Notes: generated by a model from the letters alone, not told the origin. 64,000 nt of DNA from Solirubrobacterales bacterium (GCA_038257095.1 JBBSJQ010000016.1:30417-94416); one strand, 5' to 3'. Shown: positions 6,686-54,668, counted from the first letter of the stretch. Translations and numbers: made by a program.

Positions 6686-6949
6686 CTAGCGGTTCGCGAA
6701 GTACTCGGCGTTGGCCTGCTTGAACTGCGCCCACTCGTCCGGCAACTGGTCCTCGGCGAACGAGGCGTCGACCGGGCACGCCTCGACGCAGGCGTCGCAG
6801 TCGATGCACTCCTCAGGATCGATGTACAGCTGCTCGGCGGTGTCGTAGTCCGGTTCGTCCGGCGTCGGATGGATGCAGTCGACGGGACAGACCTCGACGC
6901 AGGAGTTGTCCTTCGTGCCGATGCACGGCGCTGCGATGACGTACGCCAC
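6686..6949 (-). CDS. 7Fe ferredoxin ([3Fe-4S][4Fe-4S], FdxA-like)
   Basis: VAYVIAAPCIGTKDNSCVEVCPVDCIHP and CIDCDACVEACP cluster motifs. Start set to GTG 6949 behind GAAAGGA; track ORF extends to 7024. Confidence 0.85.
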   Translation of the reverse strand: MAYVIAAPCIGTKDNSCVEVCPVDCIHPTPDEPDYDTAEQLYIDPEECIDCDACVEACPVDASFAEDQLPDEWAQFKQANAEYFANR

Positions 6950-6987
6950 GGGAGGGTCCTTTCGCTGGAAAACGCGGGACGCCCTGA

Positions 6988-7016
6988 GTGTACATCGTGT
7001 CCATACGTCAAGTATG
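6988..7016. repeat. Conserved 29-nt element copy 1: GTGTACATCGTGTCCATACGTCAAGTATG
   Basis: 25/29 identical to 42492-42520. Contains TGTACA and the dyad CATAC-N5-GTATG. Lies 38 nt upstream of the ferredoxin start. Confidence 0.5.
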
Positions 7017-7845: not shown

Positions 7846-9399
7846 TTAGGCCTGCGCGGGGACGTCGCTGAGGTCGCGACGCTCGCGCTGGTACGGCGGC
7901 AGGATCTCGCCGAGGTAGTCGTTACCAGTGATCTCGCTGACGGTGAGGAGCGACGTGAACGCCACGCCGTCCATGAACCCGCCGTAGTTCTTGACGGAAT
8001 CGCCCACGAAGTACAGGCCGTCGATGCCCGGGCACTTGGGGTCGAGCATCTGGTCCCACGCCTGGTCCGGTGTCGGAGCGACGTTCACGACGTACTCGAA
8101 GGCCGGGAACAGCGCCCACTCCAGCGCCTCCTCGAACCCCGGATGGTTCTCCTTGAAGAAGGTCATGATCGCCTGGCAGAGGGCGTCCAGTCCGCCGGAC
8201 TCCCGGAGCTGACGCAGGTGGTGGGTCTCGAGCCCGACCCAGCACTCGATGATCTCCTTGTCGGTGGGCGCCTTGCCCTCGACAAAGAGCGAGTGCGCCT
8301 CGTACCCGAGCACGACGCCGTCCGGCAGGTCCGGGTGGTCGACGGGGACCTTCGTCATGAGCATCCCCGGAATGTCGATCACGGACTTGGACAGTCCGAA
8401 GATCGGCGTCACCGCGCCGCTCGAGGTCAGCTTCCCGGTGCGTTTGACGAAGTCCTGCGGGAGCGCGTCGGCCGGGATGATCTGATCGACCAGCAATGGG
8501 AGCGGGATGTTGGACACGACCAGCGGGCACTCGATGCGCTCGATCTCGCCGGTCGGCGTGCGGACCTCCACGCCCTGGACGACGCCGTCCTCCACGAGGA
8601 TCTGGCGGACGCGCCAGCCCGTCCGGACTTCGCCGCCCTCTGCGGTGATGACGCTGGCGAGGTTGTGGGCCACCTGCATGAAGCTCTCGCCGCCCATTTG
8701 CCCGAGCGTGCCGTCGGCGAAGTGCAGGCCGGCGGCCATGGGCATACGAGTGATGAGCATGAACTCGCCGGCGCTGAGCTCCTTCGCCGAGTTCATGCCG
8801 ACGGTGAAGGCCCCGAGGATGTCGAAGAACTCGAGGACCTTGGGGTCCGACGTGCGCTCGACGAGGTAGTCGTGCAGCGACTCGCGGTAGTGCTCGAGCA
8901 CGGTGTCGAGCGGCAGCTTCAACATCCCGCCGAGGATGGCGCGCATCTCCGCGTACTCCTCGCGAGCCATCCACGGGAACGAGCCGCGAGTCATCTCGTG
9001 CAGCTTGCCGTCACTCCAGAACCCGCACGCCTTCAGCGGGATGATCTCGACGGGAACCTCCAGCGCATCGAGCACGTGCACCAGGCGTGACTGGGCGCCG
9101 TTGACGATGTCGTGCATCCCGAGCTCGAAGTTGTACCCGGCCAGCATGCCATCCTCGATGATCTTCTCGATGGACGGCTCGCTGTAGGCGAGCGACCCGG
9201 TGAACGACTCGAGGGGCCCGAGATAGTCCTCCACGGTCTCGATCTCGTCGCCCTTGTAGTGGTGGATGCGGCCACCGATTCGCGGGGTGCGCTCGAGCAC
9301 CAGGACGCGTTTGCCCTCCTTCTTCGCCAGGAGCGCACCGGCGCAGAGACCACCGACGCCGGCTCCGGCGACGATCACGTCGAACTCGTTGGTGCTCAT
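7846..9399 (-). CDS. FAD-dependent oxidoreductase, phytoene desaturase (CrtI)/amine-oxidase-like
   Basis: FDVIVAGAGVGGLCAGALLA...LVLERTPRIGGR dinucleotide fold. Confidence 0.75.
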   Translation of the reverse strand: MSTNEFDVIVAGAGVGGLCAGALLAKKEGKRVLVLERTPRIGGRIHHYKGDEIETVEDYLGPLESFTGSLAYSEPSIEKIIEDGMLAGYNFELGMHDIVNGAQSRLVHVLDALEVPVEIIPLKACGFWSDGKLHEMTRGSFPWMAREEYAEMRAILGGMLKLPLDTVLEHYRESLHDYLVERTSDPKVLEFFDILGAFTVGMNSAKELSAGEFMLITRMPMAAGLHFADGTLGQMGGESFMQVAHNLASVITAEGGEVRTGWRVRQILVEDGVVQGVEVRTPTGEIERIECPLVVSNIPLPLLVDQIIPADALPQDFVKRTGKLTSSGAVTPIFGLSKSVIDIPGMLMTKVPVDHPDLPDGVVLGYEAHSLFVEGKAPTDKEIIECWVGLETHHLRQLRESGGLDALCQAIMTFFKENHPGFEEALEWALFPAFEYVVNVAPTPDQAWDQMLDPKCPGIDGLYFVGDSVKNYGGFMDGVAFTSLLTVSEITGNDYLGEILPPYQRERRDLSDVPAQA

Positions 9400-9402
9400 C
9401 CG

Positions 9403-10524
9403 TCAGGCCTTTCCGTGGGCGATGTCGACGTGCGTGAAGGTCGGCTCGGCCGCGCCGGGGAGCAGGGCGGTGAGCTCGGAGGTGGGGAAGAACTGCAGGA
9501 AGCGGTCGTCGACGGTGCTGCGGTCGGCCAAGAGCTTCTCGAGCGTCACCGAGTTGTACTGCTCGGCCGCGGTCTCGAGCGTGTTCGCGTTGATGATTAC
9601 GTCCTGACGCCACTCCTCCGCCCACGCGGCGACCCCGGGGATCTCGCTGAGCTCGGGCGTGACGCACTCCGCCGCGATGGCGTTCTCGCTGCAGGTCCAG
9701 ATCCCGGTGTCCGTGTTCACGGCGAGGCTCTGGTTGCCCGCGGCGTGACCGGGCGTGCGGATGATCGCGACACCCGGACCGAGCAGGACGTCGCCGTCGA
9801 GCGCGACGACCCGGTCGCCCGGGACGTCGACGTAGGTCGCCGGCTGATACCACGGGATCTGGAACGGGTGCACATCGGCGAGGGCCTCCCACTCCTCCCG
9901 CTGGACCAGGAGCTTCGCGTTCGGGAAACGCGCGGCCACCGGCTCATCGGGCGAGATGTCGTCCTGCGCGACCGTGGTCCCGAGCCAGTGACGGACGTCC
10001 TGCGTGTGCAGATGATCGAACGCCAGGTAGTCGACGTCCTCAGGCTCGACGCCGATACGTGCCAGCACGTCCAGCGCGAGCTCGTGCGGCCGCGTGAGGC
10101 CGCGGAGCTCCTCGCGGGTCAGCCGCTTGGGCAGGTCGGCGAAGTACGGGGTGTTCGCGTCGAGTGGGCCGTCACTCGGGTTGAAGAGCAGGGTCTTCAA
10201 CCGACCGCCGTCCTCCCATCGGACGACCAGCATCCGGTTGCGAAGGGTCAGGAACGGCGCGCTCAAGGTCGACGCGCGCCAGAGCCCGAACTGCGTCGGG
10301 TACGGGACGTCGACGAGCGTGTACGCCCGCACGGACTGGGGGACGCCCGTCGCAGCGAACTCCTTGCGGAAGGCCGTCGCCAGCTCGGGGATGAGCCGCA
10401 GGCGAGCACCCGGGCCACCGGGCGCCTCGACGATCGGGCGGAGCGTGTCGATGACGGGGAACGCCGAGGCGTCGCCCGTCGGGGTGGGCAGCTGCAGCTG
10501 CGGGGTCTGGGGAATCGTGCTCAT
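9403..10524 (-). CDS. Metallo-beta-lactamase-fold protein (tentative), function unknown
   Basis: FDHLHTQDVRH (variant HxHxDH region) and IIRTPGHAAGNQSL. ATGA overlap with the P450 stop. Confidence 0.5.
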   Translation of the reverse strand: MSTIPQTPQLQLPTPTGDASAFPVIDTLRPIVEAPGGPGARLRLIPELATAFRKEFAATGVPQSVRAYTLVDVPYPTQFGLWRASTLSAPFLTLRNRMLVVRWEDGGRLKTLLFNPSDGPLDANTPYFADLPKRLTREELRGLTRPHELALDVLARIGVEPEDVDYLAFDHLHTQDVRHWLGTTVAQDDISPDEPVAARFPNAKLLVQREEWEALADVHPFQIPWYQPATYVDVPGDRVVALDGDVLLGPGVAIIRTPGHAAGNQSLAVNTDTGIWTCSENAIAAECVTPELSEIPGVAAWAEEWRQDVIINANTLETAAEQYNSVTLEKLLADRSTVDDRFLQFFPTSELTALLPGAAEPTFTHVDIAHGKA

Positions 10525-11753
10525 GGCTCTGGTGTGAACTCCACGTCAAGGGATCGCAGGCCCCGAGCGTTCATGCTCGGGACGTGCCTGGGCGCGTATC
10601 CGGGGGCGAGGTGCAGGTCGGGCAGGCGGGTGAGAAGCGCTTCGAACGCGCAGCGCGCCTCCAGCTTCGCGAGGATCGAACCGAGGCAGAAGTGGATGCC
10701 GTGGCCGAACCCGAGATGTTTGGCGGCGTTGTCCCGACGGATGTCCCACACGTCCGGGTTCTCGAACACGTTCTCATCCCGGTTGGCCGAGGCGATCGAC
10801 GTGTAGACGATCTTGTCCTCCGGGATGGTGGTCCCCGCGACCTCGCTCTCGACGAGCGACAGTCGCCGCTGGGTCATGATGGGAGAGGCGAACCGCATCG
10901 TCTCGTCCAGCATGTTGGGGATCAGCGAGAGGTCGGCCCGGACGGCCGCGTGGTCGTCCGGGCGCTCGAGTAGCAGACGCGTGCCGGAGCCGATGAGGTG
11001 GCCGGTCGTCTCCTGGCCCGCGACCATGAGGAGATGGACGATCGCGAGGACCTCCTCGACGGTCATCCGCTCCTCCCCTTCGACCGACGACGTCGCCAGC
11101 GCCGACAGCAGGTCGTCCACCGGGTTGTCGCGACGCGCCTGGATGCGCTCCGCGAAGTAGTGCTGGAACTCGACCCGGCTCTCGATGCATTGGACCTCGC
11201 GCTCGGGGCTGAGCACGCCGCTGAGGTGCTCCATCGCGTCGTCCGACCACTTCTTGAAGGTCTGGATGTTCTCCTTCTCGACTCCGAGGATCGACACCAT
11301 CAGGAGCAGCGGCAGCTTCGAGGAGAAGTCGGCGATGATGTCGGCCCGGCCGGCGGAGCCGAAGTCGTCGACCAGGTCGTCGGCGATGCCCTGGATGAGG
11401 CCCTCCCACTCCTGCACGCGGCGCGTGCTGAAGACCGCCGAGACGAGTTTGCGGTAGCGAGTGTGACCGGGCGGGTCGTTCGAGACCAGCGTGTTGGGCA
11501 CCCGGAAGCCGCGCATCATGACTTCCTTCATCGCTGGCGTCGGCTTCGGGCGCAGACCCGGGCCGCCGCGGTTGGAGTAGGTCTTCGGGTTCTTCAAGGC
11601 GGCGAGCACGTCCGCGTGCCGGGTGATCAGGTACGCGTCCTGCTTCTCCAGATAGCAGACCGGGACTTCACGCCGCGCGTAGGCGTAGAACTCGTACGGA
11701 TCCTCGAGGATCTCGGGAGCGAACGGGTCGGCGAACTTCGACGAGGTGGCCAT
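10521..11753 (-). CDS. Cytochrome P450
   Basis: Heme loop FGHGIHFCLG, I-helix MVAGQETT, ExxR (ETMR). Confidence 0.95.
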   Translation of the reverse strand: MATSSKFADPFAPEILEDPYEFYAYARREVPVCYLEKQDAYLITRHADVLAALKNPKTYSNRGGPGLRPKPTPAMKEVMMRGFRVPNTLVSNDPPGHTRYRKLVSAVFSTRRVQEWEGLIQGIADDLVDDFGSAGRADIIADFSSKLPLLLMVSILGVEKENIQTFKKWSDDAMEHLSGVLSPEREVQCIESRVEFQHYFAERIQARRDNPVDDLLSALATSSVEGEERMTVEEVLAIVHLLMVAGQETTGHLIGSGTRLLLERPDDHAAVRADLSLIPNMLDETMRFASPIMTQRRLSLVESEVAGTTIPEDKIVYTSIASANRDENVFENPDVWDIRRDNAAKHLGFGHGIHFCLGSILAKLEARCAFEALLTRLPDLHLAPGYAPRHVPSMNARGLRSLDVEFTPEP

Positions 11754-11775
11754 CTATGGAGTCTCCGTCGTGAGC

Positions 11776-11792
11776 ATACTGTCGGACATTAT
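11776..11792. promoter_or_regulatory. Operator candidate O2 ATACTGTCGGACATTAT
   Basis: In the 62-nt ligase/P450 gap, about 22 nt upstream of the P450 ATG; implies an internal promoter. Confidence 0.6.
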
Positions 11793-11815
11793 CAGTCGAG
11801 GCTCGCCGGCTCGAT

Positions 11816-13366
11816 CTACGAGATACGGGGCGCGGCGTGACGGGCGCGCAGCTCGCGCTTGAGTACCTTGCCGGTCGCCGTACGAGGCAGCTCGGGGATG
11901 TACTCGTAGCTCTGCGGGCACTTGTACTTCGCGATCTGCTCGAGGGCATGGGCGCGCAGTGCGTCGTCCGAGACCCCCTCGCCTTCGCGCAGCACGATGA
12001 CGGCGTGAATGGCCTCGCCCCACTGCTCGTGCGGCACGCCGATCACAGCCGCCTCGAGGACGGCGGGGTGGCTGGCCAGCGCCTCCTCGACCTCGCGGCT
12101 GACCACGTTGATCCCACCGGTGATGATGATGTCCTTCTTCCGATCGACGAGCGTGACGATGCGGTACTCGTCGACCACGGCGATGTCGCCGGTCTTCAGC
12201 CAGTCACCGACTCGGCAGGCCGCGGTGTCCTCCGGCTTGCGGAAGTATCCGGGCGAGACGGCCGGGCCCTTGAGCCACACCTCGCCCGTGGTCGTCCCGT
12301 CTCCCGGCACGTCCGTGCCGTCGTCTCCGACCACACGCACGTTCATGTTCGCCTGCGGCCGGCCGGTGGGAAGAAGGGTGCGATCAGCGACGAGCGAGTA
12401 CTGCTCCTGTCGGAGGATCAGACCGCTGGAGGCGGTCTCGGCCATGGCGTACATCGGGAAGACGACGGGTCCGATCGTCGCACGGACCTCCTCAACGAGC
12501 GCGGCGCTGACCGGCGCGCCGCCCATTGTCGCGTGCGTGAAGCTCGAGAGATCGAACTCGGCCCGGCGCGGATGGTCGAGGAGCATCCGCATCATGGTGG
12601 GCACCATGGTGCTGGCGGTCACCTTGAAGTCGTTGATGCAACGCAGGACGGAGAGCGGCTCGAAGGATGGGATGAGGACCATGCGGCCGCCCTTGAGGAA
12701 CGCTGCGGGAACGCCGCTGGCGGGCCCGCCGGAGTTGAAGAAGAGCGACAGCATCTGGAGGTAGGTGCTGTTCTCCGTGACCGGGTACTCCATCGCCCAG
12801 CCGTTGACCGAGGCGATCGCAGAGTCCTGCGTCATGATCGCGCCCTTGACCGTGCCGGTCGTCCCGCTGGTCGGACACAGCTGGTAGATCGCGTCGCCGG
12901 GGACCTCGATGCCCGGAGCAGACGGGTCCTCGGCGGCCATCAGCACCCCGAGGTCCAGCGGGGCGCCGTGCCCCTCACCCGTGCCGATGACGAACTCGAG
13001 CGTCGGCAGTTGGTCGGTGACGGCCGCACCGAGCTCGGCGTAGTCGGCGTGGACGAGTACGGCGCGGGGCTCAATGTAGGAGAGGTACGAGACCAGCTCC
13101 GACGCGGTCTGGCGGATGTTGACCGGCGCGCCGGCAACACCCGTCTTCGCACAGGCGAAGAAGAACTCGATGTACTCCGGGCAGTTCGGCGCCAGGATCG
13201 CGAGGCGGTCGCCGGGCTCCAGCCCGAGGGTCACGAGGGCTCGAGCGAAACGATTGCTCTGCTCGCTGAGCTCCTTCCAGGACAGGGTCGGGCCGTCGAG
13301 CTGCACGATGGCGTCTGCCTCCGGCTTGTACTCGGCGTTCCGTCCGGGAATGTCACGAATCAACAT
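11816..13366 (-). CDS. Acyl-CoA synthetase (AMP-forming)
   Basis: CPTSGTTGTVKGA AMP motif. Track ORF trimmed to ATG 13366 behind GGAGGAG. Confidence 0.9.
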   Translation of the reverse strand: MLIRDIPGRNAEYKPEADAIVQLDGPTLSWKELSEQSNRFARALVTLGLEPGDRLAILAPNCPEYIEFFFACAKTGVAGAPVNIRQTASELVSYLSYIEPRAVLVHADYAELGAAVTDQLPTLEFVIGTGEGHGAPLDLGVLMAAEDPSAPGIEVPGDAIYQLCPTSGTTGTVKGAIMTQDSAIASVNGWAMEYPVTENSTYLQMLSLFFNSGGPASGVPAAFLKGGRMVLIPSFEPLSVLRCINDFKVTASTMVPTMMRMLLDHPRRAEFDLSSFTHATMGGAPVSAALVEEVRATIGPVVFPMYAMAETASSGLILRQEQYSLVADRTLLPTGRPQANMNVRVVGDDGTDVPGDGTTTGEVWLKGPAVSPGYFRKPEDTAACRVGDWLKTGDIAVVDEYRIVTLVDRKKDIIITGGINVVSREVEEALASHPAVLEAAVIGVPHEQWGEAIHAVIVLREGEGVSDDALRAHALEQIAKYKCPQSYEYIPELPRTATGKVLKRELRARHAAPRIS

Positions 13367-13421
13367 CTGTCTCTCTCCTCCGTTCGAGCAACGTGCTCGC
13401 CCTCTTAGATGGTCCTTGCGG

Positions 13422-14543
13422 TCATGTGCGTTGACCCGCTTGTCCGGGGCTCCAGGAGGCATCCCTGCCTCCGAGCTCCGGGTACGTCGTTGGGTCCGTC
13501 GGCCGCCATTGCGGCGTGAGGGGAAGCGGGAGGGCGGGCATCTCGCGGTCGCCGGCCGTCACCCGGCCAGCGAAGACGCCGCGCGCCTCGAGATGCGCGT
13601 CGCGGAGCGCCTCGTCAAGTGTCCGCACGACGGCGCAGCAGACGTCCTCACCGTCGAAGAGCAGGTCCCACTGGGCCGCCGTTCGCGAGGCGACGCGGTC
13701 CGCGACCGCTTGCGCGGTGGCGACGGGATCCGTCGCGTCGTCGCGCGCCGCCTCGGGCAGGTCGACGAGCTCGCAGAAGCGGCCCCAGAAGCGGTCTTCC
13801 AGGGGGGCGACCGCGAGGGCGCGTCCGTCTGCGGTCGGGTAGACGTTGTAGCGGGGACTCGCCCCGGTGACGAGCGCGTCGCCACCCTTCGGCCAGGCGC
13901 CGGCGGCGAAGCCCTCGGCCAGTGCCCAGTAGGTGAGCGTGTAGAGGTTGTCGGTCATCGAGATGTCGAGGTGCGCTCCCGCGCCCGACCGCTCGCGGGC
14001 GAGCAGCGCGAAGGCGATGTTCATCACGGCGGGGTACGCGCCGCCCGCGATGTCGGCGATGAGGACCGGCGGCAGCGCCGGCTCGGTCAGCGAGAGGACG
14101 CCCGCCTCCGCCAGGTAGTTGAGGTCGTGTCCGGCGCGGTTCGCCGAGGGACCGTCCTGCCCGTAACCCGTGATGGAGCAGTAGACGAGACCTGGCCTCC
14201 GGGCGCTCATGACCTCGTATCCGAGGCCGAGCCGCGCCATGACGCCTGGACGGAACTGCTCGATCACCACGTCTGCCTCGTCGGCCAAGGCGAGTGCGAT
14301 GTCCCGGTCCGACTCGTCCTTCAGGTCCAGCGCGATGCTCCGCTTGCCGCGGTTCAGTAGCGCGAAGTTCGCGCTGGCCTCACCGAACTTCGGCACGTAG
14401 GTCCGCATCTCATCGCCGTGGCCGGGTCGTTCGACCTTGATGACCTCGGCGCCGGCACCACCCAGGATCAGGCCCGCGAGCGGTCCGGGCAGCAGCGTGC
14501 TGAAGTCAAGCACGCGGATCCCGTCCAGCGGCAACGTCGTCAC
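13422..14543 (-). CDS. Family III CoA-transferase / alpha-methylacyl-CoA racemase-like (CaiB/BaiF family)
   Basis: LDGIRVLDFSTLLPGPLAGLILGGAGAEVIKVERPGHGDEMR. GTG 14543 in GTGA overlap with the upstream stop; the track ORF N-terminus is an artefact. Confidence 0.8.
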   Translation of the reverse strand: MTTLPLDGIRVLDFSTLLPGPLAGLILGGAGAEVIKVERPGHGDEMRTYVPKFGEASANFALLNRGKRSIALDLKDESDRDIALALADEADVVIEQFRPGVMARLGLGYEVMSARRPGLVYCSITGYGQDGPSANRAGHDLNYLAEAGVLSLTEPALPPVLIADIAGGAYPAVMNIAFALLARERSGAGAHLDISMTDNLYTLTYWALAEGFAAGAWPKGGDALVTGASPRYNVYPTADGRALAVAPLEDRFWGRFCELVDLPEAARDDATDPVATAQAVADRVASRTAAQWDLLFDGEDVCCAVVRTLDEALRDAHLEARGVFAGRVTAGDREMPALPLPLTPQWRPTDPTTYPELGGRDASWSPGQAGQRT

Positions 14544-15565
14544 ACCGCCGCCCCTGACGTGCCGGCCGCAATGGCGCGGAGCGAGACCGCGTCGCGGAGG
14601 ATCCTCTCGATCGGGTACTCCGTGAGGTAGCCGTAGCCACCGAGCACCTGGACCATGTCCAGACTCGCGGTCACCGCGTAGCCGGTGGCTGCCGCCGCGA
14701 CCGATCGGGCGGCGGAGTTCCGGTCCTCGTCCACGCGCGTGCACTGGGCGAGCAGCGCCGCGCGGTGACTCGCGACCTGGTCGGCAACCCTGTCGAGCTT
14801 CGCTCTGACCACCGGGATCGCGTCGAGGCTCCGGCCGAACTGGTGCCGATCGGCAGCGTAGATTCGCGCGTGCTTCCCCGCGGCGTCCGCCAGGCCGACG
14901 GCGGCCGCGCCAATCAGCAGCTGCCGCACCTCGCGCAGCCGGTCGGCGGTCACGGAGCTCCGCACCACGTCGGCGGTGAGGGTCACGGGCACGGGCCGCG
15001 ATCCGCGCATGCCGGTGCGGGCGAGAGGCTCGCCGCAGCTGCGCCCCGACCAGGCGTCCTGCGCGACGACGTAGGCGCCGTTCTCCGTCACGACGACAGC
15101 GGAGGCCGCGTCGGCCGCGCCCTCGGCGCGCGCGGCGTGCAGCTCCAGGCGTCCGTCCGTCACGTCCGCGCCGACCAGCGACGAACCAGCGTCGATGACA
15201 CACGGGCGGGCGCCCTCGGCCAGTGCGCGGGCGACGCCACGCCCCGACTCGTCGTCACACCCCAGCGCGGCGAGACCGGCGACGTGCACGTCGGCGAGGA
15301 GCAGCGCCAGCGCCGGTGACGCAGTCGCGACGATGGCGGCCGCCAGCGCGACATCGGCCAGCGTGGCGCCGGAGCCGCCGCAGTCCTCCGGGAGTCCGGC
15401 GGCGTAGATGCCCTGGGCGACGAGCAGCTCGACCGTGTCGTCGCCGAGGCGGTCCTCCTGCTCGATCGCGTCGACCACGGACGCGATGCGCTCGTCGGCG
15501 ACCTGACCGAGCATCTCGGCGTACGCCTCGCTCTCGGCGGACAAAAGCGGCCAGTCCGTGCTCAT
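14540..15565 (-). CDS. Acyl-CoA dehydrogenase family protein (short, 341 aa)
   Basis: QFGRSL, GGYGYLTEYPIERILRDA C-terminal ACAD signature. ATGA overlap with the upstream crotonase. Confidence 0.75.
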   Translation of the reverse strand: MSTDWPLLSAESEAYAEMLGQVADERIASVVDAIEQEDRLGDDTVELLVAQGIYAAGLPEDCGGSGATLADVALAAAIVATASPALALLLADVHVAGLAALGCDDESGRGVARALAEGARPCVIDAGSSLVGADVTDGRLELHAARAEGAADAASAVVVTENGAYVVAQDAWSGRSCGEPLARTGMRGSRPVPVTLTADVVRSSVTADRLREVRQLLIGAAAVGLADAAGKHARIYAADRHQFGRSLDAIPVVRAKLDRVADQVASHRAALLAQCTRVDEDRNSAARSVAAAATGYAVTASLDMVQVLGGYGYLTEYPIERILRDAVSLRAIAAGTSGAAV

Positions 15566-16341
15566 CGGAGGTACTTGCTCCGATCGGGGGCGCGACGCTC
15601 CCCGAATGCTGCGCTCATCTCGTGCGCCTCGTCCGTCGTGAGGTAGAAGGTCAGGAGCTGGTCGTGGGCCATGCGGGCCTGACCGGCCACGCCGTTGTGA
15701 CGCCCGCTAAACGCGGCCTTGAGACCGGCAAGGGCACCCGGGCCGCGTTCGAGAAGGTCGGCGGCGCACTCCGCGACCCGTGCCTGCAGCTGATCGCCCG
15801 GGACGACCTCGTTGACCAAACCCATCTCCAGCGCCTGCTCGGCGCTGTATTTGCGGTTGAAGTACCACATCTCCTTCGCGCGCTTGCGGCCGACGGTGTC
15901 CTCCAGGTACCAGGTGCCGTAGCCGGCGTCGAAGCTGCCGACCATGGGACCGACCTGGCGGAACACGGCGTTGTCCGCGGCGATCGTGAAGTCGCAGATC
16001 GTGTGCAGGACGTTGCCCCCACCCACCGCGAAGCCATTGACCGCGGCGATGATCGGCTTCGGCACGATGTCGAGCAGCTCGTACACGTCGACGATCGGGA
16101 GGACCTCCGCGTAGTCGTGGTCCTCGAACGGATCGTGCTCGCCGCCGATGCAGAAGAACTTGTCCCCGGCACCGGTCAGCACCGCGACCCGCAGACGCCG
16201 GTTATCGCGGAAGTTCCGCAGGGCGTCGGCCAGCTCCAGCGCCGTGGTACGGCGGAACTTGTTGCCGGCGTCCGGGCGGTTGATGGTGATCCAGGCGACG
16301 CCGTCGCGCTCTTCGAAGGCGATGTCCTCGTACGTGCTCAT
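15562..16341 (-). CDS. MenB/BadI-family crotonase (2-ketocyclohexanecarboxyl-CoA hydrolase-like ring hydrolase or DHNA-CoA synthase-like)
   Basis: LTGAGDKFFCIGGE, GGGNVLHTICDFTIAADNAVFRQVGPMVGSFDAGYG, closely parallel to E. coli MenB [36 protein letters not shown]. Confidence 0.8.
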   Translation of the reverse strand: MSTYEDIAFEERDGVAWITINRPDAGNKFRRTTALELADALRNFRDNRRLRVAVLTGAGDKFFCIGGEHDPFEDHDYAEVLPIVDVYELLDIVPKPIIAAVNGFAVGGGNVLHTICDFTIAADNAVFRQVGPMVGSFDAGYGTWYLEDTVGRKRAKEMWYFNRKYSAEQALEMGLVNEVVPGDQLQARVAECAADLLERGPGALAGLKAAFSGRHNGVAGQARMAHDQLLTFYLTTDEAHEMSAAFGERRAPDRSKYLR

Positions 16342-17186
16342 GCCTGCTCCTCCTTGTTGACTCCGATGCGGAAACCCCGGCCGGACACGGCGCCCAGCTC
16401 ACCCGCGTCGACCATGCGGCGCAGCAGCGCGGGCGCAGCGAAATGCGCGTCGCCGAGCTGTGCGTAGAGCGCGTCACAGCGCTCGAGATGGACGTCCAGC
16501 CCGATCTCGTCGAGGACCATGAGCGCCCCGTTGGGGTACCCCAGGCCGAGCTCGAGCGCCACGTCGAGATCCTCCGGTGTCGCGAGCCCTTCGTCCAGGC
16601 AGGTGACAACGTCGTTCAGATAAGGAACGAGGAGCCGCTGCGCGAGGAAGCCCGGACGATCGATGACGTCGACGACCTCCTTGCCGAGCACCTTGGCAAG
16701 GTCGGAGGCCGCCGAAAGACTCCGCGGGTCGGTCTGTCTGCCCGCCACACGCTCGACCACCGGGTTGGTGTGCGCCGCACCTGGGAAGCTAAGTCCGACC
16801 ACGAGGCCGGGAGACGCCGCCGACGCAGCGATCTCCCCGACCGACAGGACGGAGGTGGTGGTGACGAACGGGACCCGCGGATTCCGGGCCTCGGCGGTCC
16901 GCAACGCCTCGAGCTTCTGGGCGAGATTCTCGGGGCAGGCCTCGACCACGGCGGCGGGCTCTGTCGTCCCGGAGCCGACCTGGATAAGGGCCTTGGCGTC
17001 GTCAAGGTCGTTGTCGCGGAAGAGTTCCGCGGCGACAAGCGCCGCAAGCGTCCCGTGTGCCCGCGCCTGGAACTCGTCCGAGGCGTTGCCCTCCTCGGCC
17101 GCCAGCGTGACGCGGACTCCAGAGGCCGCCGCGAGCGCCGCGATCTCCGCCGCGCGTCGCGTCTCTCCGATCAGCAGGATGTTCAT
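16338..17186 (-). CDS. 3-hydroxyacyl-CoA dehydrogenase-like protein with degenerate NAD-binding motif
   Basis: C-terminal PGFLAQRLLVPYLNDVV HAD domain. N-terminus ILLIGETRRAAEIA replaces GxGxxG. Confidence 0.7.
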   Translation of the reverse strand: MNILLIGETRRAAEIAALAAASGVRVTLAAEEGNASDEFQARAHGTLAALVAAELFRDNDLDDAKALIQVGSGTTEPAAVVEACPENLAQKLEALRTAEARNPRVPFVTTTSVLSVGEIAASAASPGLVVGLSFPGAAHTNPVVERVAGRQTDPRSLSAASDLAKVLGKEVVDVIDRPGFLAQRLLVPYLNDVVTCLDEGLATPEDLDVALELGLGYPNGALMVLDEIGLDVHLERCDALYAQLGDAHFAAPALLRRMVDAGELGAVSGRGFRIGVNKEEQA

Positions 17187-18085
17187 CGCCCCACCGCCGA
17201 TGCCGTGCCGGACCCAAACGCGCGCTCACGCTCGTACTCGTAGAAGCCCCGACCGGTCTTCCGGCCGAGGTCTCCGGCAGCGATCATCTGGTCGACCAGC
17301 GGCGGGGGCGCGAACCGCGGGTCGCGCAGCTGCTCGTACAGGCTCATGGATACCGCCTTGTGAATGTCGAGACCGACGATGTCGAGGAGTCGGAAGGTCC
17401 CCATCGGGTTGCCGAGGGCCTTGGCCGTGATCGCGTCGATGCTCTCGATCGTGCCCAGCCCGGCCGCGAGCGCCCGGATGCAGTCGTTCTCGAACGGAAC
17501 GAGAAAGCGGTTGACGATGAAGCCCGGAGCGTCCGCCGTCGTCACGCTGACCTTCTTCAAGCTGTCGATGAACTCCAGGGTGCGGTGGTACGCGTCGTCC
17601 GAGGTCTGCCGTGCGCGCACGACCTCGACGAGCTTCATTAGCGGAGCCGGGTTGCAGTAGTGCGTGCCGACGACGCGCCCGGGCAAGCGGGAACCGGCGG
17701 CGATCGCGGTCGCCGAGAGGGTTGAAGTGTTCGTGTGGAAGAGCGTGTCCTCCCGGCAGATATCGTCCAGCTCGCCGAACGTCTTCGCCTTGAGCGCGGT
17801 GTCCTCGAAGATCGCCTCGATGACCACGTCGCAGCTGCCGAGGGCCTCGAGGTCCGTCGTTGTCTCGATCCGGCTCAGTGCGGCGCTCGCCGCCTCCTCG
17901 GGAAGCTTGCCCAGGCTGACGCTCCGGTCGAGGAACGCCCGGACGGCGTCGACGCCCTGCTCGAGCTGATCGTTCGACAGGTCGCGCCATACGAGCGCGT
18001 GCCCGGCGCGCAGCACGACGATGGCGATTCCGATGCCCATCGTGCCGGCGCCGAGCACGCCGACGGTCCGTGAATCCGTGGCCAT
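17183..18085 (-). CDS. 3-hydroxyacyl/3-hydroxybutyryl-CoA dehydrogenase
   Basis: VGVLGAGTMGIGIA, EAIFED, GTHYCNP, PGFIVNRFL. Trimmed to ATG 18085 behind AAGGAG. Confidence 0.9.
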   Translation of the reverse strand: MATDSRTVGVLGAGTMGIGIAIVVLRAGHALVWRDLSNDQLEQGVDAVRAFLDRSVSLGKLPEEAASAALSRIETTTDLEALGSCDVVIEAIFEDTALKAKTFGELDDICREDTLFHTNTSTLSATAIAAGSRLPGRVVGTHYCNPAPLMKLVEVVRARQTSDDAYHRTLEFIDSLKKVSVTTADAPGFIVNRFLVPFENDCIRALAAGLGTIESIDAITAKALGNPMGTFRLLDIVGLDIHKAVSMSLYEQLRDPRFAPPPLVDQMIAAGDLGRKTGRGFYEYERERAFGSGTASAVGR

Positions 18086-18102
18086 ACTTTCTCCTTTGAG
18101 GG

Positions 18103-18867
18103 TCATCGGGCGGTCTGGCCGCCGTCGATCACGATCGTCTCGCCGGTCATGAAGTCGCTGGCGGACGAGGCGAGCTGCACGATCCACGCACCCAGCTCTG
18201 GTGCCTCGCCCATGCGGCCGGCGGGGATGTTGCTGAGGATGCGCTTCATCAGCCGCTCGTCTTCACGCACGTCGGCGTTGAGCGGCGTCGCGAAGTAGCC
18301 CGGGGCGAGCGCGTTCACCTGGATGTTGTGCCGGGCCCACTCGACCGCGGCGACCTTGGTGAGGCTGATGACCGCCGCCTTGGTCGCGCAGTACGCGGCG
18401 AAGTTCGGGATTCCCGCGTAGGCGAAGTTGGACGCAAGGTTGATGACCTTCCCGCGCTCCTGGGCGACGAGATGCCGGCCGGCCGCGCGGGTCACGTAGA
18501 AGACGCCTCGGAGGTTCAGGTTGACGACCGCGTCCCACTCGTCGTCGGTCGTCGTGAGCAGCGGTGTCGGCGGCGCCGCACCGGAGTTGTTCACCACGAT
18601 GTGGAGACCGCCCAGCTCTTCGACCGTCCCGGCGATCAGCTCGTCGACGGACGCCGACGACGTCACGTCGGTCCGGATCGCTGCGGCCTTGCGCCCCTTC
18701 GCGCGGATCTCCTCCGCCACGGTCTCGAGCTCGTCGACGCTGCGCGCCGCCAGCGCGACGTCCGCACCGGCGTCCGCGAGGGCGAGCGCAGCCGCCCGCC
18801 CCAGCCCGCGCCCGGCGCCGGTCACGACCGCCACCTGGCCCGCCAGTGCTCCGTCAGCCACGTCCAT
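18103..18867 (-). CDS. Short-chain dehydrogenase/reductase (FabG-like)
   Basis: VTGAGRGLGRAAA, NNSG, YCATKAA. Confidence 0.85.
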   Translation of the reverse strand: MDVADGALAGQVAVVTGAGRGLGRAAALALADAGADVALAARSVDELETVAEEIRAKGRKAAAIRTDVTSSASVDELIAGTVEELGGLHIVVNNSGAAPPTPLLTTTDDEWDAVVNLNLRGVFYVTRAAGRHLVAQERGKVINLASNFAYAGIPNFAAYCATKAAVISLTKVAAVEWARHNIQVNALAPGYFATPLNADVREDERLMKRILSNIPAGRMGEAPELGAWIVQLASSASDFMTGETIVIDGGQTAR

Positions 18868-20092
18868 CTCCTGCCTTTCGCGTCAGGTCGCGGCCGATGA
18901 GCAGCCGCTGGACCTCGTTGGTGCCGTCGTAGATCTGTGTGACCTTCACATCGCGGAGGTAGCGCTCCGAGGCCGCGTCGACCAGGTCCCCCTCGGGTCC
19001 GAGGAGCCCGGTGACGAACTCCGACGCCGTCATGCCGAGGTCGGTGCACCGTGCTTTCGCCATCCCGACCTCGGCGGTCAGATCACGCTCGGGCTCCTCG
19101 TCCACGGCGCGTGCGACGGAGTAGAGGAGCTGGCGCGCCATCAGGATCTCGGTGCGGAGGTCGGCGAGCCGGAACAGCTGCGTCTGCCACTGCGGGTCAC
19201 GGAGCAGCCCGCGGTGCGCCGCCCAGTCGACCGCGAGGCCGTACTGCGCGGCGGCGATGCCGAGGCCCTGGGATGCAGCGCTGATCCGCGACTTCACGAC
19301 CGTCCGCATCGACAGCGCCCAGGCGCCTCCCTCCTCGCCCAGGAGACTCGACTCGGGGAGATGCACGTCGTCGAGGAAGAGCTCGGCCGTGGTCGAGCCG
19401 TGCATGCCGAGCTTCTCCAGGACATGCCCGCGCGACAGCCCGTCGACGTCCCCCGGGAGCAGGAAGGCGGTGATCCCGTCGCGACCCCGGTCCTTGTCGA
19501 CCGTCGCGAAGAGGATCGTCACGGCCGCCTTGTCGCCCGTGGTGATGAAGGTCTTCGAGCCGTTGACGACGTACCCGTCGTCCGTCCGGCGAGCCGTTGT
19601 CCGAATCGCTGCGGCGTCGGAGCCGGCGGACGGCTCCGTAATTCCGAGGGCGCCGAGTGCGCTCCCGTCGCACAGGACGGGGATCCAGCGCTCGCGCTGC
19701 TCGTCCGTCCCCTCCAGAAGGATCGGATAGGCCGCGTGCATCTGGGTCATCAGGATCAGGGACGTCGCGGGACAGGCCGCGGCCACCGCTTCGATCGTGA
19801 TCGCGTAGGACACGGTTGACGCGTCGACGCCCCCGTATTGCGCCGGGAACGTCAGCCCGCCGAAGCCCGCGTCGCAGAGCGCCTGCACCGGCTCCGCCGC
19901 GAAGGTGCCCTCGCGGTCGCGGGCGGCCGCACCCGGAGCGACCGAGCGGGCGATGACCTCGCGGAGCTCGCTGCGCAGCCGCACCTCGTCGGCCGTGAGC
20001 AGCCGGTCCACGAGGGGCTCGTCGAAGCGCTCGAGCGTGTCGGGCGCCTTGGGAAGCTCCGGCGCGGACCACTTCGGTGTCTCGACGCTCAT
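18854..20092 (-). CDS. Acyl-CoA dehydrogenase
   Basis: ITEPSAGSD, IYDGTNEVQRLLIGR. ATG 20092 in ATGA overlap with the CoA-transferase stop. Confidence 0.9.
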   Translation of the reverse strand: MSVETPKWSAPELPKAPDTLERFDEPLVDRLLTADEVRLRSELREVIARSVAPGAAARDREGTFAAEPVQALCDAGFGGLTFPAQYGGVDASTVSYAITIEAVAAACPATSLILMTQMHAAYPILLEGTDEQRERWIPVLCDGSALGALGITEPSAGSDAAAIRTTARRTDDGYVVNGSKTFITTGDKAAVTILFATVDKDRGRDGITAFLLPGDVDGLSRGHVLEKLGMHGSTTAELFLDDVHLPESSLLGEEGGAWALSMRTVVKSRISAASQGLGIAAAQYGLAVDWAAHRGLLRDPQWQTQLFRLADLRTEILMARQLLYSVARAVDEEPERDLTAEVGMAKARCTDLGMTASEFVTGLLGPEGDLVDAASERYLRDVKVTQIYDGTNEVQRLLIGRDLTRKAGDGRG

Positions 20093-21255
20093 GCGACCAC
20101 CTCCACTCCGAGCTCGGGCGCTCCCGACCGCAACGGGGGCGCCGTAGACGCTCCGAGGCGCCACGGCGCGCGCACCACGCGCAGCCCGCTGTCGAGTTCG
20201 ACGATGCTCTCGCGCGCGAGAACCTGCGGGTCCGTGACGACCTCCGAGAGCGACTGGACCGACGACGCCGGGACGCCCGCGTCCGCGAGGTCCGTCAGCC
20301 AGTCCGCAGCGGGCCGCGTCCTAAGCCGTTCCGCGATGAGCGGCAGGATCCGCGGGCGCGCATCGCGGCGGCCGGCGTTGTCGGCGAGGGTCTTGTCCTC
20401 GGCAAGCTCCGGGACCCCGACGAGTCGCGCGAAGCGCTGCCAGATCGCCTCGCTGCCGATCGCAATCACGATCGGGCGGTCCGCTGTCTCGAACGGCTGG
20501 TACACGGCGAGCACGGAGTCGGTGCCTCCGCTGGGTGCCGGCTCCGGCTCCCCTGCGAGGAAGCTCGCGATGCGCGGCGCCATGAGCGCGAGGTCGGAGT
20601 CGAGCAGGGAGACGTCGATGAACTCGCCGGTGCCCGTCCGGCCCTGCTGCACGAGGCACGCGTTGATCGCCCCGAAGGCAACCATTCCGGTGACGATGTC
20701 CGAGAGCGCGGTGCTGACGCGCTGCGGTGTGCCGCCGGCGGCGCCCGTGACGCTCATGAGCCCGGAGCGGGCCTGCGCTGCGAGGTCGTACCCACCGGTC
20801 TCGGCGTCGGGTCCGGTGAACCCGAACCCGGAGAGCGCGCAGTAGATCAGCCGTGGGTGAGCTGCCATCACCGCGTCGGGCTGCAGGCCGAGCGCGGAGA
20901 GCTTCGACGGGTTGAAGCTCTCGAGCAGCACGTCGGCGTCGGCCAGCAGCTCGTCGAGGCGCGCGCGGTCGGCTTGATCGCGGAGGTCGAGGACCAGCGA
21001 CTGCTTGTTGCGGTTGGCCGACTCGAACCAGGCGGAACGCCCGTCGACGAACGGCGGACCCCACGAGCGGGTGTCGTCTCCGAGTGGCGGCCGCTCGATC
21101 TTCAGCACCGAGGCGCCCATGTCCGCCAGGTACATCGCGGCGGTCGGCCCGGCGTAGGACGTCGACAGATCCACGACGCGCACACCCGTGAGTGGGAGGG
21201 CTGCGACTGAACCGGGCGCACTTGCTCCTTGACCTGCTGTCATAATGTTCGACAT
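20089..21255 (-). CDS. Family III CoA-transferase (CaiB/BaiF family)
   Basis: LTGVRVVDLSTSYAGPTAAMYLADMGASVLKIERP. Alternative start ATG 21243 abuts operator O3. Confidence 0.85.
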   Translation of the reverse strand: MSNIMTAGQGASAPGSVAALPLTGVRVVDLSTSYAGPTAAMYLADMGASVLKIERPPLGDDTRSWGPPFVDGRSAWFESANRNKQSLVLDLRDQADRARLDELLADADVLLESFNPSKLSALGLQPDAVMAAHPRLIYCALSGFGFTGPDAETGGYDLAAQARSGLMSVTGAAGGTPQRVSTALSDIVTGMVAFGAINACLVQQGRTGTGEFIDVSLLDSDLALMAPRIASFLAGEPEPAPSGGTDSVLAVYQPFETADRPIVIAIGSEAIWQRFARLVGVPELAEDKTLADNAGRRDARPRILPLIAERLRTRPAADWLTDLADAGVPASSVQSLSEVVTDPQVLARESIVELDSGLRVVRAPWRLGASTAPPLRSGAPELGVEVVA

Positions 21256-21258
21256 TAG
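21242..21258. promoter_or_regulatory. Operator candidate O3 ATAATGTTCGACATTAG
   Basis: At the divergent CoA-transferase/ACAD promoter. Minus strand reads TAATGT-8 nt-ATG(21243). Confidence 0.6.
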
Positions 21259-21320
21259 CAGGGAAGGGCGGTGTTGGTCCTCAGTCCTTCTTTAGGCCTA
21301 CGCACCAATCGGGAGTACGA

Positions 21321-22499
21321 ATGACGATTCAAGCCGAGCAGGTCTCAGAGACCCAGATGTCGTTCGCTTTCAGCGACGAGCAGACCGCGATGCGGGAAGC
21401 AGCGCGGGGCTTCGTGGAGCGCTACTGCAACAAGGATCACGTCCGCGTCTGGGACGAGGAGCGGGAGTTCCCACTGGACCTCTACAGGCGCATGGCCGAC
21501 ATGGGCTGGCTGGGACTCATGGTCCCGGAGGAGTACGGCGGCACCGGCGGCTCCGTGGTCGACATGGTCGCCGTCTACGAAGTGCTCGGACGTCACTCCG
21601 TCGACATTCCGACGCGGCTCGCGCTGACGTTCTGGGGCCAGATCAACCTCCTGATGTACGGGACGGACGAGCAGCGTGAGCGCTTCCTCGCGCCTAGCGT
21701 CCGCGGGGAGATCCCGTTCTCGTTCAGCCTCAGCGAGCCTGACTCCGGCTCCGACGCCGCTTCGGTCTCCACCTTCGCACGGCTTGACGGCGACGAGTGG
21801 GTCATCGACGGTCAGAAGGTGTTCTGCACCGGAGCGTCGCTCGAGAACAACGTCATGGTGGTCGCCGTCCGGACCGACCGGGACGTCCCGAAGCATCAGG
21901 GCATCTCCATGCTCCTGGTCCCTATCGATGCCCCCGGCGTCGAAGTCACCAAGATGCCCACCATTGGTCGGAAGATCGTTGGCACCAACGAGGTCTTCTT
22001 CACCGAGGCCCGCGTGCCAGCCGAGAACCTGCTCGGACCGCTTAACGGCGGGTGGAAGCTCGTCACCTCACACCTCGAGCGCGAGCGTTTGACGCTCGCC
22101 GCAATGTACCTCGGCAACGCCCAGGGGGCTCTTGAGGACGCGCTCAAGTACGCGGGCGAGCGCGAGCAGTTCGGCCGGCCCATCGGCAAGAACCAGGCGA
22201 TCCGGCACATGCTTGCGGAGATGGCGACCGATGTGGAGGCCGGGCGGTGGCTCACCTACTACGGCGCGTGGCGGCTTGCGCAGGGGCTTCCCTGCACGAA
22301 GGAAGCGACGATGTCCAAGGTCTTCGTCTCCGAGATGTGGCAGCGCGTCGCGACCAACGGTATGCAGATCCTCGGTGGTCACGCCTACACCACCGACCAT
22401 GCGATGCAGCGCTACTGGCGGGACTCCCGCAACGGGACCGTCGGCGGCGGAACGTCGCAGATCCTGCGCGACGTCATCGGCGCGACGCTCGAAATCTGA
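21321..22499 (+). CDS. Acyl-CoA dehydrogenase
   Basis: LSEPDSGSDAAS, QFGRPIG, YWRDSRN. GGGAG SD upstream. Confidence 0.9.
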   Translation: MTIQAEQVSETQMSFAFSDEQTAMREAARGFVERYCNKDHVRVWDEEREFPLDLYRRMADMGWLGLMVPEEYGGTGGSVVDMVAVYEVLGRHSVDIPTRLALTFWGQINLLMYGTDEQRERFLAPSVRGEIPFSFSLSEPDSGSDAASVSTFARLDGDEWVIDGQKVFCTGASLENNVMVVAVRTDRDVPKHQGISMLLVPIDAPGVEVTKMPTIGRKIVGTNEVFFTEARVPAENLLGPLNGGWKLVTSHLERERLTLAAMYLGNAQGALEDALKYAGEREQFGRPIGKNQAIRHMLAEMATDVEAGRWLTYYGAWRLAQGLPCTKEATMSKVFVSEMWQRVATNGMQILGGHAYTTDHAMQRYWRDSRNGTVGGGTSQILRDVIGATLEI

Positions 22500-22518: not shown

Positions 22519-23310
22519 ATGACCCTCGAACTGCCCGAGACGGTGCTCTACGAAAAGCGCGACCGCCTCGCCATCATCACCATCAACCGCCCGGAGCGCC
22601 GCAACGCGATGACGCCCGAGATGCGCTCCGGCATCCAGGCCGCGTTCCGGGACTTCAACGACGACGACGACATGTGGGTCGCCATCTTCACGGGAGCCGG
22701 AGAGCAGGCCTTCTGCGCGGGAGCCGACCTCGGCAAGACCATCCCGCAGTGGACGGCTGATCCGGAGGCTCGCCTGCGTGACGCGGTTCCAGACCCGACC
22801 CAGCGCCACTTCCACTACATCCACAAGCCCATCATCGGCGCGGTCAACGGCATCGCGACGGCCGGCGGGCTCGAGATGCTGCTCGGCACCGACATGCGCA
22901 TCGCCGCCGAGCACGCAAGCTTCGGCCTCGGCGAGGTCAAGTGGGGACTCGTCCCGATCGGCGGCTCACACGTCCGACTCCCCCGGCAGATCCCGTGGGC
23001 CGTCGCGATGCAGCTGCTCCTGACCGGCGAGCCGATCGACGCCGAGCGCGCCTACGACATCGGCCTGATCAACAAGGTCGTTCCCGCGGACAAACTGATG
23101 GACGAGGCCTTGGCGCTTGCAGATCGCCTGTGCCGCAACGGTCCGTTCGCGATGCGTGCCGCGAAAGAGTCAGCGGTCCGCTCGCTGGTCCTCGAGCCGC
23201 AGTTCGCCCAGGACTTCTACCTCGCCGGACGGGTCTTCAAGACCGCCGACGCTGCGGAGGGCCCCACGGCTTTCATGGAGAAGCGCGAGCCGCGCTTCAC
23301 CGGCTCCTGA
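22519..23310 (+). CDS. Enoyl-CoA hydratase/isomerase
   Basis: ITINRPERRNA, FTGAGEQAFCAGADL. ATG 22519 behind AAGGAGAC; the track ORF N-terminus is an artefact. Confidence 0.9.
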   Translation: MTLELPETVLYEKRDRLAIITINRPERRNAMTPEMRSGIQAAFRDFNDDDDMWVAIFTGAGEQAFCAGADLGKTIPQWTADPEARLRDAVPDPTQRHFHYIHKPIIGAVNGIATAGGLEMLLGTDMRIAAEHASFGLGEVKWGLVPIGGSHVRLPRQIPWAVAMQLLLTGEPIDAERAYDIGLINKVVPADKLMDEALALADRLCRNGPFAMRAAKESAVRSLVLEPQFAQDFYLAGRVFKTADAAEGPTAFMEKREPRFTGS

Positions 23311-38605: not shown

Positions 38606-38676
38606 GATTTCAGTTTACGGTCTGCGGTCGGACAGCTTCCCTTCTCTCCCGACCAGGCGCCCGGCACCTGGCCGTC

Positions 38677-40311: not shown

Positions 40312-40342
40312 CGATGCTCCGTCCTCGCGTAGTGGTGGTGCC

Positions 40343-40359
40343 AGAATGTCCGACAATAA
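40343..40359. promoter_or_regulatory. Operator candidate O7 AGAATGTCCGACAATAA
   Basis: 32 nt upstream of the ligase ATG, heading the ligase-GntR operon. Minus strand carries TATTGT. Confidence 0.65.
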
Positions 40360-40404
40360 CATTCACGCGGTCCGAGGGCGAGCGTGGCTCGTATCCACTT
40401 CCAC

Positions 40405-44468: not shown

Positions 44469-44474
44469 GAGAAG

Positions 44475-45200: not shown

Positions 45201-45205
45201 GTCGA

Positions 45206-54667: not shown

Positions 54668-54668
54668 C

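Follow-up and report, generated by a model that had tools for sequence, protein, structure and literature searches.

The window analysed here is a stretch of 64,000 nucleotides from a soil metagenome-assembled genome (MAG) of a Solirubrobacterales bacterium (GCA_038257095.1, JBBSJQ010000016.1:30417-94416; C16:30417-94416 on contig C16 of our numbering), with a G+C content of 69%. On its minus strand, nine open reading frames (ORFs) span positions 11816-21255 and encode CoA-dependent enzymes, among them a crotonase of the MenB/BadI group with which this study is chiefly concerned. The preliminary description of the locus had seen a minus-strand chain of coupled genes belonging to named families, and both our ORF table and the Pfam and NCBIfam scans by which the families were assigned bear this out.

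The first gene of the operon, CoAT1 (20089-21255, starting at either 21255 or 21243), encodes a family III CoA-transferase (Pfam CoA_transf_3, 386 bits). It is followed by ACAD (18854-20092), an acyl-CoA dehydrogenase of short-chain type with the three Pfam domains of that family, and by SDR (18103-18867), a short-chain dehydrogenase/reductase-type oxidoreductase (Pfam adh_short) and a candidate ring 2-hydroxyacyl-CoA dehydrogenase. Next come two 3-hydroxyacyl-CoA dehydrogenase genes: the intact HAD1 (17183-18085, with an alternative ATGA-coupled start at 18106; Pfam 3HCDH_N and 3HCDH) and its paralogue HAD2 (16338-17186), matched more weakly by Pfam 3HCDH. The crotonase gene (15562-16341; Pfam ECH_1), whose product we propose to be a retro-Dieckmann (C-C) hydrolase, precedes sACAD (14540-15565), a short ACAD-like protein of 341 amino acids in which Pfam matches the N and C domains only. 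CoAT2 (13422-14543, GTG start) encodes a second family III protein (CoA_transf_3), of putative racemase (Far/Mcr) type. Finally, an acyl-CoA ligase of generic long-chain/FadD type (11816-13366; Pfam AMP-binding; NCBIfam PRK06187, 416 bits, below the cut-off of 476) is the last gene before a cytochrome P450 block; its ORF reaches 13462, the likelier start being 13366. On the minus-strand reading, four-base overlaps were recovered at all five junctions where they had been announced, namely ATGA at 20089, 17183, 16338 and 15562 and GTGA at 14540. The overlap of ACAD with SDR measures 14 nt, and a gap of 17 nt separates SDR from HAD1. No promoter-like or terminator-like sites were found within 11700-21450.

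The top NCBIfam models of the crotonase were those of the DHNA-CoA synthase MenB, NF005637 (280 bits, cut-off 380) and TIGR01929 (245 bits, cut-off 343), and that of BadI, TIGR03210 (242 bits, cut-off 468). Its best solved relative is the Geobacillus MenB 2IEX (E 6e-77), the identity, judged by eye from the alignment, being about 50%; at that level of identity to solved MenB structures the predicted fold is not in doubt. A tree was calculated from proteobacterial BadI (nine proteins above the TIGR03210 cut-off), MenB of both length types, actinobacterial BadI-like proteins and homologues of the window protein, using four ordinary enoyl-CoA hydratases from the same genome as an outgroup. A quick tree and a maximum-likelihood IQ-TREE tree were concordant. 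The MenB/BadI group was monophyletic relative to the hydratase outgroup (support 97/99), with the window crotonase inside it, and comprised four clades: proteobacterial BadI (99/92), MenB (96/99), actinobacterial BadI-like proteins (97/93) and a clade containing the window protein (100/100), hereafter the window clade. The latter falls outside the other three, on a long stem (1.38 substitutions per site). The order in which the four clades branch was poorly supported (14/17 and 55/45). The preliminary description had proposed a phylogenetic placement as a check; as run against MenB and BadI, it sets the crotonase outside both, and clustering with bona fide MenB was not seen.

In the window clade, GGGNVLH, the Ser/Asp block VGSFDAGYG (GSFD) and the C-terminal Tyr are kept, and Val and Gly fill both hydratase glutamate positions in the crotonase. 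The other three clades share a loop, GGDQ..G.Y, with a conserved Tyr (Tyr97 in E. coli MenB); here this loop is replaced by GGEHDP and a deletion, and no Tyr is conserved in this lid loop across the window clade. Further changes are FGQ to FRQ and LAR to LED. Thus, the family assignment first proposed for this protein holds, in the light of both the tree and the missing hydratase glutamates; its active site had also been said to match MenB/BadI almost residue for residue, which is true of the two motifs and the C-terminal Tyr but not of the Tyr-bearing loop. The residues FFCIGG-x-H, FRQVGP and TW-x-LE are diagnostic of the window clade, and deeper members found among 50%-identity representatives (e.g. 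P0121, 52% identical) carry the same signatures. Homologues sharing 68% identity or more with the crotonase make up at least 119 distinct 90%-identity clusters, with the exception of P0004 (52% over a partial match). They come mostly from soil metagenomes; about half are unnamed, and many bear one of the labels 'naphthoate synthase', 'crotonase' or 'enoyl-CoA hydratase-related'. As judged from its sequence, the crotonase is a member of the MenB/BadI (Dieckmann-type) group but is neither a MenB nor a BadI.

Two further crotonase relatives are encoded in the genome, on contigs C3 and C1. The first, at C3:264769-265554, is the cell's MenB and lies above the cut-offs (434 and 377 bits). No men genes were present among the window genes scanned, in agreement with the earlier remark that menaquinone genes are not nearby. 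The contig C1 relative scores 331 bits to BadI and directly adjoins the best BadH-like SDR of the genome (311 bits; G000:C1:508293-509904, L089:8281-9922). This arrangement recalls a cluster that responds to cyclohexane- and cyclopentane-carboxylate as inducers in Rhodococcus aetherivorans BCP1, namely chcpca (badI-badH-aliA-gcdH-aliB-tetR-ech; PMC5906575). The likeness to the badI-badH core is one of gene order, only two genes being matched at E<=1e-70 and no BCP1 sequence having been compared. For the ring opening of plain cyclohexanecarboxylate, the C1 pair is this genome's better candidate. Like the window operon, chcpca encodes a MenB/BadI-type enzyme ('naphthoate synthase') and belongs to an aerobic actinobacterium; it differs in architecture and in its TetR regulator, and the window operon is a separate module.

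Orthologues of the crotonase, about 63-72% identical, were found in scattered members of the Actinomycetota, namely in Amycolatopsis orientalis, in Gordonia sesuvii, in two MAGs, one of which holds a second copy, and in six further Mycobacteriales genomes; the module was present in 6 of the 300 other Mycobacteriales species searched. Among 400 genomes sampled from the phylum to which the window belongs, no orthologue was detected at E<=1e-90; the 12 same-genus genomes of the relatives search showed none either. A candidate from one genome (G001) proved to be a BadI-like paralogue (L104, 45% identity) and was discarded. The recurring gene order is CoAT1, enoyl-CoA hydratase, ACAD, (SDR), HAD1, HAD2, crotonase, sACAD, (CoAT2), AMP-ligase, GntR/FCD regulator, where brackets denote genes not always present. 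Several of these clusters carry MFS transporters, and elsewhere the core module stands without lipid genes. Literature searches for this combination of genes returned no characterised match; in the paper on the oestrogen aed cluster, no badI-like gene was identified in the strain concerned. In two of the Mycobacteriales genomes, a polysaccharide-deacetylase-like gene is divergent from CoAT1 (L098:16243-17127 and L099:2976-3836) and a D-2-hydroxyacid dehydrogenase gene adjoins the GntR gene (L098:5410-6477 and L099:13586-14650). They could be additional members of the pathway, or their presence could be due to the two genomes being related.

The window copy departs from this order in several respects. 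The ligase and the regulator of the module do not correspond to the operon's own ligase; they match (46-52% identity) the window genes 38677-40362 and 37898-38614, displaced by 20 kb from the operon, while in the other genomes they are adjacent to the crotonase cluster. Both lie on the minus strand. The former encodes an AliA-like ligase (38677-40311, ORF to 40362; Pfam AMP-binding) and the latter a GntR/FCD regulator (37898-38614; Pfam GntR and FCD). The generic FadD-type ligase and the P450 block are additions of the window copy. The hydratase found elsewhere between CoAT1 and ACAD is not in the operon, and a search of the genome retrieved no orthologue of it (best 38% identical). On the plus strand, a divergent ACAD gene (21321-22499; Pfam) and a gene for an EchA19-like enoyl-CoA hydratase (about 22540-23310; Pfam; NCBIfam EchA19, 281 bits, below the cut-off of 400) run away from the operon. 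The EchA19-like protein shares only 32-38% identity with the hydratase that the orthologous clusters encode, and may be the supplier of the hydration step. We also considered the crotonase itself as a stand-in for the missing hydratase and rejected it, both catalytic glutamates being absent and the orthologous clusters holding both genes.

Among the partner enzymes, SDR scores 163 bits to the BadH model TIGR03206 (rank 6 in the genome) and has orthologues of 52-59% identity in most related clusters. ACAD scores 129 bits to AliB (rank 27 out of 28 in the genome), and its nearest solved structures are short-chain and butyryl-CoA dehydrogenases. It carries an Asp (D389) in a YDGT motif (YDGTNE) at the position where most acyl-CoA dehydrogenases have the catalytic Glu, and this Asp is invariant in the 10 orthologues aligned. 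In the alignment of sACAD, the middle-domain region TEPxAGSD is deleted and AAG replaces YEG/YDG, so that no catalytic base is left. The sACAD gene, four genes apart from that of ACAD, is always downstream of the crotonase gene in the orthologous loci, with identities of 28-36% by blastp and 32-37% in the alignment as compared with about 45-54% for ACAD. Non-catalytic subunits lacking the catalytic base and the middle-domain motif are known among acyl-CoA dehydrogenases, and heteromeric (alpha2beta2) enzymes of this kind are typical of actinobacterial steroid catabolism. The fast evolution of sACAD, its lost catalytic base and its fixed place after the crotonase follow the pattern of such a subunit, although its nearest solved relatives are ordinary homotetrameric enzymes. 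We propose that sACAD is probably the non-catalytic partner of ACAD.

A similar loss was observed in the second 3-hydroxyacyl-CoA dehydrogenase. HAD1 carries GAGTMG and HYCNP. In HAD2, IGETRRA replaces GxGxxG and SFPGA replaces HFFNP, so that both the NAD-binding glycine motif and the catalytic His are lost. Its orthologues are intact in two loci (L011 and L013), and that of A. orientalis (L012) has decayed independently, via a deletion of 45 residues.

The two family III proteins could be told apart by their nearest solved structures and by one motif. For CoAT1 these structures are SUGCT and formyl-CoA transferase, and the protein is best predicted to be a true transferase of that type. The best solved match of CoAT2 is the Mycobacterium tuberculosis Far 2G04 (2.4e-52), followed by formyl-CoA transferase and SUGCT and then by AMACR/MCR. 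CoAT2 has AGHDLNY where CoAT1 has GGYDLAA, and the His of the GHDxNY motif is the catalytic base of the racemases. We predict CoAT2 to be of the alpha-methylacyl-CoA racemase type (Far/Mcr; 2G04, 1X74), as the preliminary description had allowed in calling it a second CoA-transferase 'or racemase-like' protein. As for the AliA-like ligase, it scores 412 bits to the cyclohexanecarboxylate-CoA ligase model TIGR03208 (cut-off 792), the next ligase of the genome reaching 300, and the solved structures closest to it are those of salicylate- and dihydroxybenzoate-AMP ligases, enzymes that act on ring-attached carboxylates.

A palindromic GntR-type predicted operator, TAnTGTssGACAnTA, occurs at 8 sites in the window against 0 expected. 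One of them, TAATGTTCGACATTA (21243-21257), shares bases with the start codon of CoAT1 and, on its other side, precedes the divergent ACAD gene by 64 nt. Another, TACTGTCGGACATTA (11777-11791), is an exact palindromic match situated between the operon ligase and the P450 gene. The remaining sites are found at 32973, before a DUF35-thiolase operon; at 35426, between epoxide-hydrolase and thiolase genes; at 40344-40358, the AliA-like ligase having its real start 33-47 nt further on; and at 59609, 62176 and 63138. An additional one, at C16:98027, is just past the window. Every exact match in the 4.48-Mb genome falls on contig C16. These sites mark at least 9 promoters of a self-contained regulon of about 55 kb, presumably placed under the GntR/FCD gene described above. 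The orthologous loci do not contain the window operator in its exact form; related sites, AAATGTnnGACnTTG, were spotted there by eye upstream of CoAT1. At CoAT1 no ribosome-binding site precedes either candidate ATG, which, together with the overlap of operator and start, suggests a leaderless transcript. The AliA-like ligase has a good GGACGGAG ribosome-binding site downstream of its operator, the real start being 40311 and not 40362.

The regulon also holds a Mce importer, an aldehyde dehydrogenase, a MaoC protein, acyl-CoA dehydrogenases and DUF35-thiolase pairs. The Mce-type lipid import operon lies within 44000-56000, in the same island, and encodes a MlaE permease along with several proteins with MlaD domains; immediately upstream of this operon, no match to the operator was detected. 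At a G+C content of 68.7%, as compared with a genome value of 72.2%, the 10-kb windows of contig C16 rank in about the lowest 5%. Such an atypical composition in a soil MAG points to an acquired island or a plasmid, or else to a mis-binned contig. In a search of sequencing runs no RNA run matched, and the only match was a soil metagenome, probably the source of the MAG.

We read the locus as the core of a GntR-controlled catabolic module whose candidate substrate is a carboxylic acid on a saturated, substituted ring, opened hydrolytically, and give this reading a probability of about 0.5. The gene families, their translational coupling, the separate crotonase clade, the residues kept and lost, the recurrence of the module and the operators are observations; from them we infer each of the enzymatic steps that follow, the pairings of ACAD with sACAD and of HAD1 with HAD2, and the ring nature of the substrate. 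The acid would first be converted to its CoA ester, via the AliA-like ligase or via the SUGCT-like CoAT1 with a dicarboxylyl-CoA donor. The racemase-like CoAT2 would equilibrate the epimers at the alpha-carbon, and the short-chain-type ACAD, probably paired with the dead sACAD, would make the 1,2-double bond. A hydratase, which the divergent EchA19-like gene may supply, would then add water, and SDR or HAD1 would turn the resulting 2-hydroxyl into a ketone. Finally, the crotonase would cleave the beta-ketoacyl-CoA with water, in a retro-Dieckmann reaction, to yield an open-chain dicarboxylyl-CoA that would enter ordinary beta-oxidation. The BadH/BadI-like pair present elsewhere in the genome, the racemase and the rebuilt lid loop make a substituted or stereoisomeric alicyclic acid more likely as a substrate than plain cyclohexanecarboxylate.

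This scheme shares its logic (ligase or transferase, dehydrogenase of acyl-CoA, hydratase, dehydrogenase, hydrolase) with the bad/ali pathway of Rhodopseudomonas palustris and Aromatoleum sp. CIB (PMC9795900). The BadI of that pathway, which hydrolyses 2-ketocyclohexanecarboxyl-CoA to pimelyl-CoA, is a crotonase of the same MenB/BadI group, with GSxD, the C-terminal Tyr and no hydratase glutamates. It was to this cyclohexanecarboxylate route that the preliminary description had compared the gene set. The comparison stands as far as activation, dehydrogenation, oxidation and hydrolytic C-C cleavage are all possible from the genes, and as the ligase travelling with the module is AliA-like. It does not extend to orthology: SDR and ACAD are poor matches to BadH and AliB, the crotonase belongs to a separate clade with a rebuilt lid loop and stays far from the BadI cut-off (242 versus 468 bits), and the operon has no hydratase gene. 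The window module further adds two 3-hydroxyacyl-CoA dehydrogenases, a racemase-like protein, the dead sACAD, a family III CoA-transferase and a GntR regulator. A Bad-like hydration, oxidation and hydrolysis of substituted cyclohexene-carboxyl-CoA has also been assigned to mrcDEF of Castellaniella defragrans (PMC4109377). MrcE differs from the window crotonase, being 88% identical to a proteobacterial BadI and not a member of the window clade.

The Castellaniella island contains a phytoene-desaturase-family oxidoreductase together with a ferredoxin, and a comparable pair occurs downstream of the window operon, where a gene for a phytoene-desaturase-family (CrtI-like) flavoprotein (7846-9402) adjoins a ferredoxin gene (about 6700-7000), the P450 gene being located at 10521-11753. 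The pair recalls the limonene dehydrogenase CtmAB and the ferredoxin CtmE (PMC4109377), a likeness drawn by description only. For the CrtI-like protein, NCBIfam and the PDB gave nothing specific, and the ESM Atlas gave generic amine-oxidase/phytoene-desaturase labels only.

Several observations weigh against the ring-opening reading. The model cut-offs are reached by neither the crotonase nor the AliA-like ligase, SDR is not BadH-like and ACAD is not AliB-like. The hydratase is missing and HAD2 is dead, so that this copy may be partly decayed, or may function in another way than its orthologues do. The rebuilt lid loop, deprived of the Tyr conserved in MenB and BadI, could support a different chemistry. 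The racemase would suit an acyclic 2-methyl-branched acid equally well, and the Mce lipid importer and the DUF35-thiolase genes of the regulon point to a larger lipid and not to a small ring acid.

Some of these points are shared by the main alternative, which we consider rather unlikely: the module would degrade an acyclic acid (2-methyl-branched, isoprenoid-derived or dicarboxylic), and the crotonase would use water to cleave an open-chain beta-ketoacyl-CoA, so replacing a thiolase. The core module has indeed no thiolase, racemases of the Far/Mcr type are typical of the oxidation of 2-methyl-branched acyl-CoA, CoAT1 resembles dicarboxylate CoA-transferases such as SUGCT, and two 3-hydroxyacyl-CoA dehydrogenases plus SDR exceed the need of one ring-opening turn; the new lid loop would also permit a different substrate shape. 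Nevertheless, the characterised members of the MenB/BadI group all make or break a ring (PMC13689101), the conserved ligase is nearest to ligases for ring-attached carboxylates and ACAD is of the short-chain type, all of which argue against this alternative.

The larger setting of the operon evokes steroids, and the crotonase could accordingly be viewed as an EchA20-like hydrolase acting on the last rings of steroids or of a related polycyclic terpenoid, within a steroid-like island. The Mce importer, the DUF35-thiolase/aldolase modules, the EchA19-like hydratase, MaoC and the dead ACAD-like subunit share one regulon, and heteromeric acyl-CoA dehydrogenases are typical of steroid catabolism, a likeness to which sACAD adds its missing base and middle-domain motif, its pairing being predicted. 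EchA20 (the HIEC-CoA hydrolase of steroid ring D) moreover opens a CoA-ester ring by a reverse Dieckmann reaction within a beta-oxidation-like pathway, as we propose for the window crotonase. However, EchA20 is reported to be only about 28% identical to MenB (PMC5380842), as against the roughly 50% estimated by eye for the window crotonase and MenB 2IEX; it is set apart here by this published identity and by gene context. Searches for HsaA and KshA_C in this 97.7%-complete genome were empty, which is weak evidence as the control genomes were silent too, and neither IpdAB nor IpdC nor IpdF was seen in the window. ACAD belongs to the short-chain type, and the orthologous clusters do without lipid genes, beside MFS transporters. 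The resemblance to steroid C/D-ring degradation put forward in the preliminary description is thus weak, and we hold a steroid role for the crotonase to be quite improbable.

Last, it is extremely unlikely that the crotonase runs in the condensing, ring-forming direction of MenB, in biosynthesis or salvage, or is a redundant MenB, even though MenB models head its NCBIfam matches and it shares with MenB 2IEX the fold, the GGGNVLH and GSFD blocks and the C-terminal Tyr, and thereby MenB's Ser, Asp and Tyr residues: it scores below both MenB cut-offs and lies in a separate, long-stemmed clade, the Tyr-bearing loop of MenB is lost, a MenB above cut-off is encoded elsewhere in the genome, the window has no men genes, and all the neighbouring genes encode catabolic CoA enzymes controlled by a FadR-type GntR repressor.

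Returning to hydrolytic opening of a saturated, substituted ring, a MenB/BadI-type hydrolase in a CoA-dependent ring-acid pathway is known, and the window locus is a variant and not a new kind of system. What is new is the well-separated clade with its diagnostic residues, the conserved module with a racemase and two decayed enzyme paralogues, and the GntR operator of the module. A bolder version can be offered tentatively, as a possibility that we do not favour: the window clade would be a functionally new ring-opening (or C-C) hydrolase, its lid loop rebuilt for substituted or bicyclic alicyclic or cyclic-terpenoid acyl-CoA. Together with the racemase, the heteromeric acyl-CoA dehydrogenase and the HAD/pseudo-HAD pair, it would form a so far undescribed pathway for the degradation of stereoisomeric naphthenic or terpenoid acids in aerobic actinobacteria, one that would here have been absorbed into a larger GntR regulon with Mce uptake.

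Hydrolytic ring opening of the BadI type is the key step in the degradation of saturated ring acids, which include naphthenic acids, hydrogenated aromatics and cyclic terpenoid acids, some of them persistent pollutants. In aerobic actinobacteria only the chcpca-type cluster is experimentally supported, and the window clade represents a second, clearly separate branch. Its cultured carriers, G. sesuvii and A. orientalis, are organisms in which its substrate could be found. The clade also calls for caution towards the automatic labels 'naphthoate synthase' and 'enoyl-CoA hydratase-related' borne by many of its homologues. Finally, the repeated decay of HAD2 and the dead sACAD provide small examples of pseudo-enzymes kept in catabolic operons.

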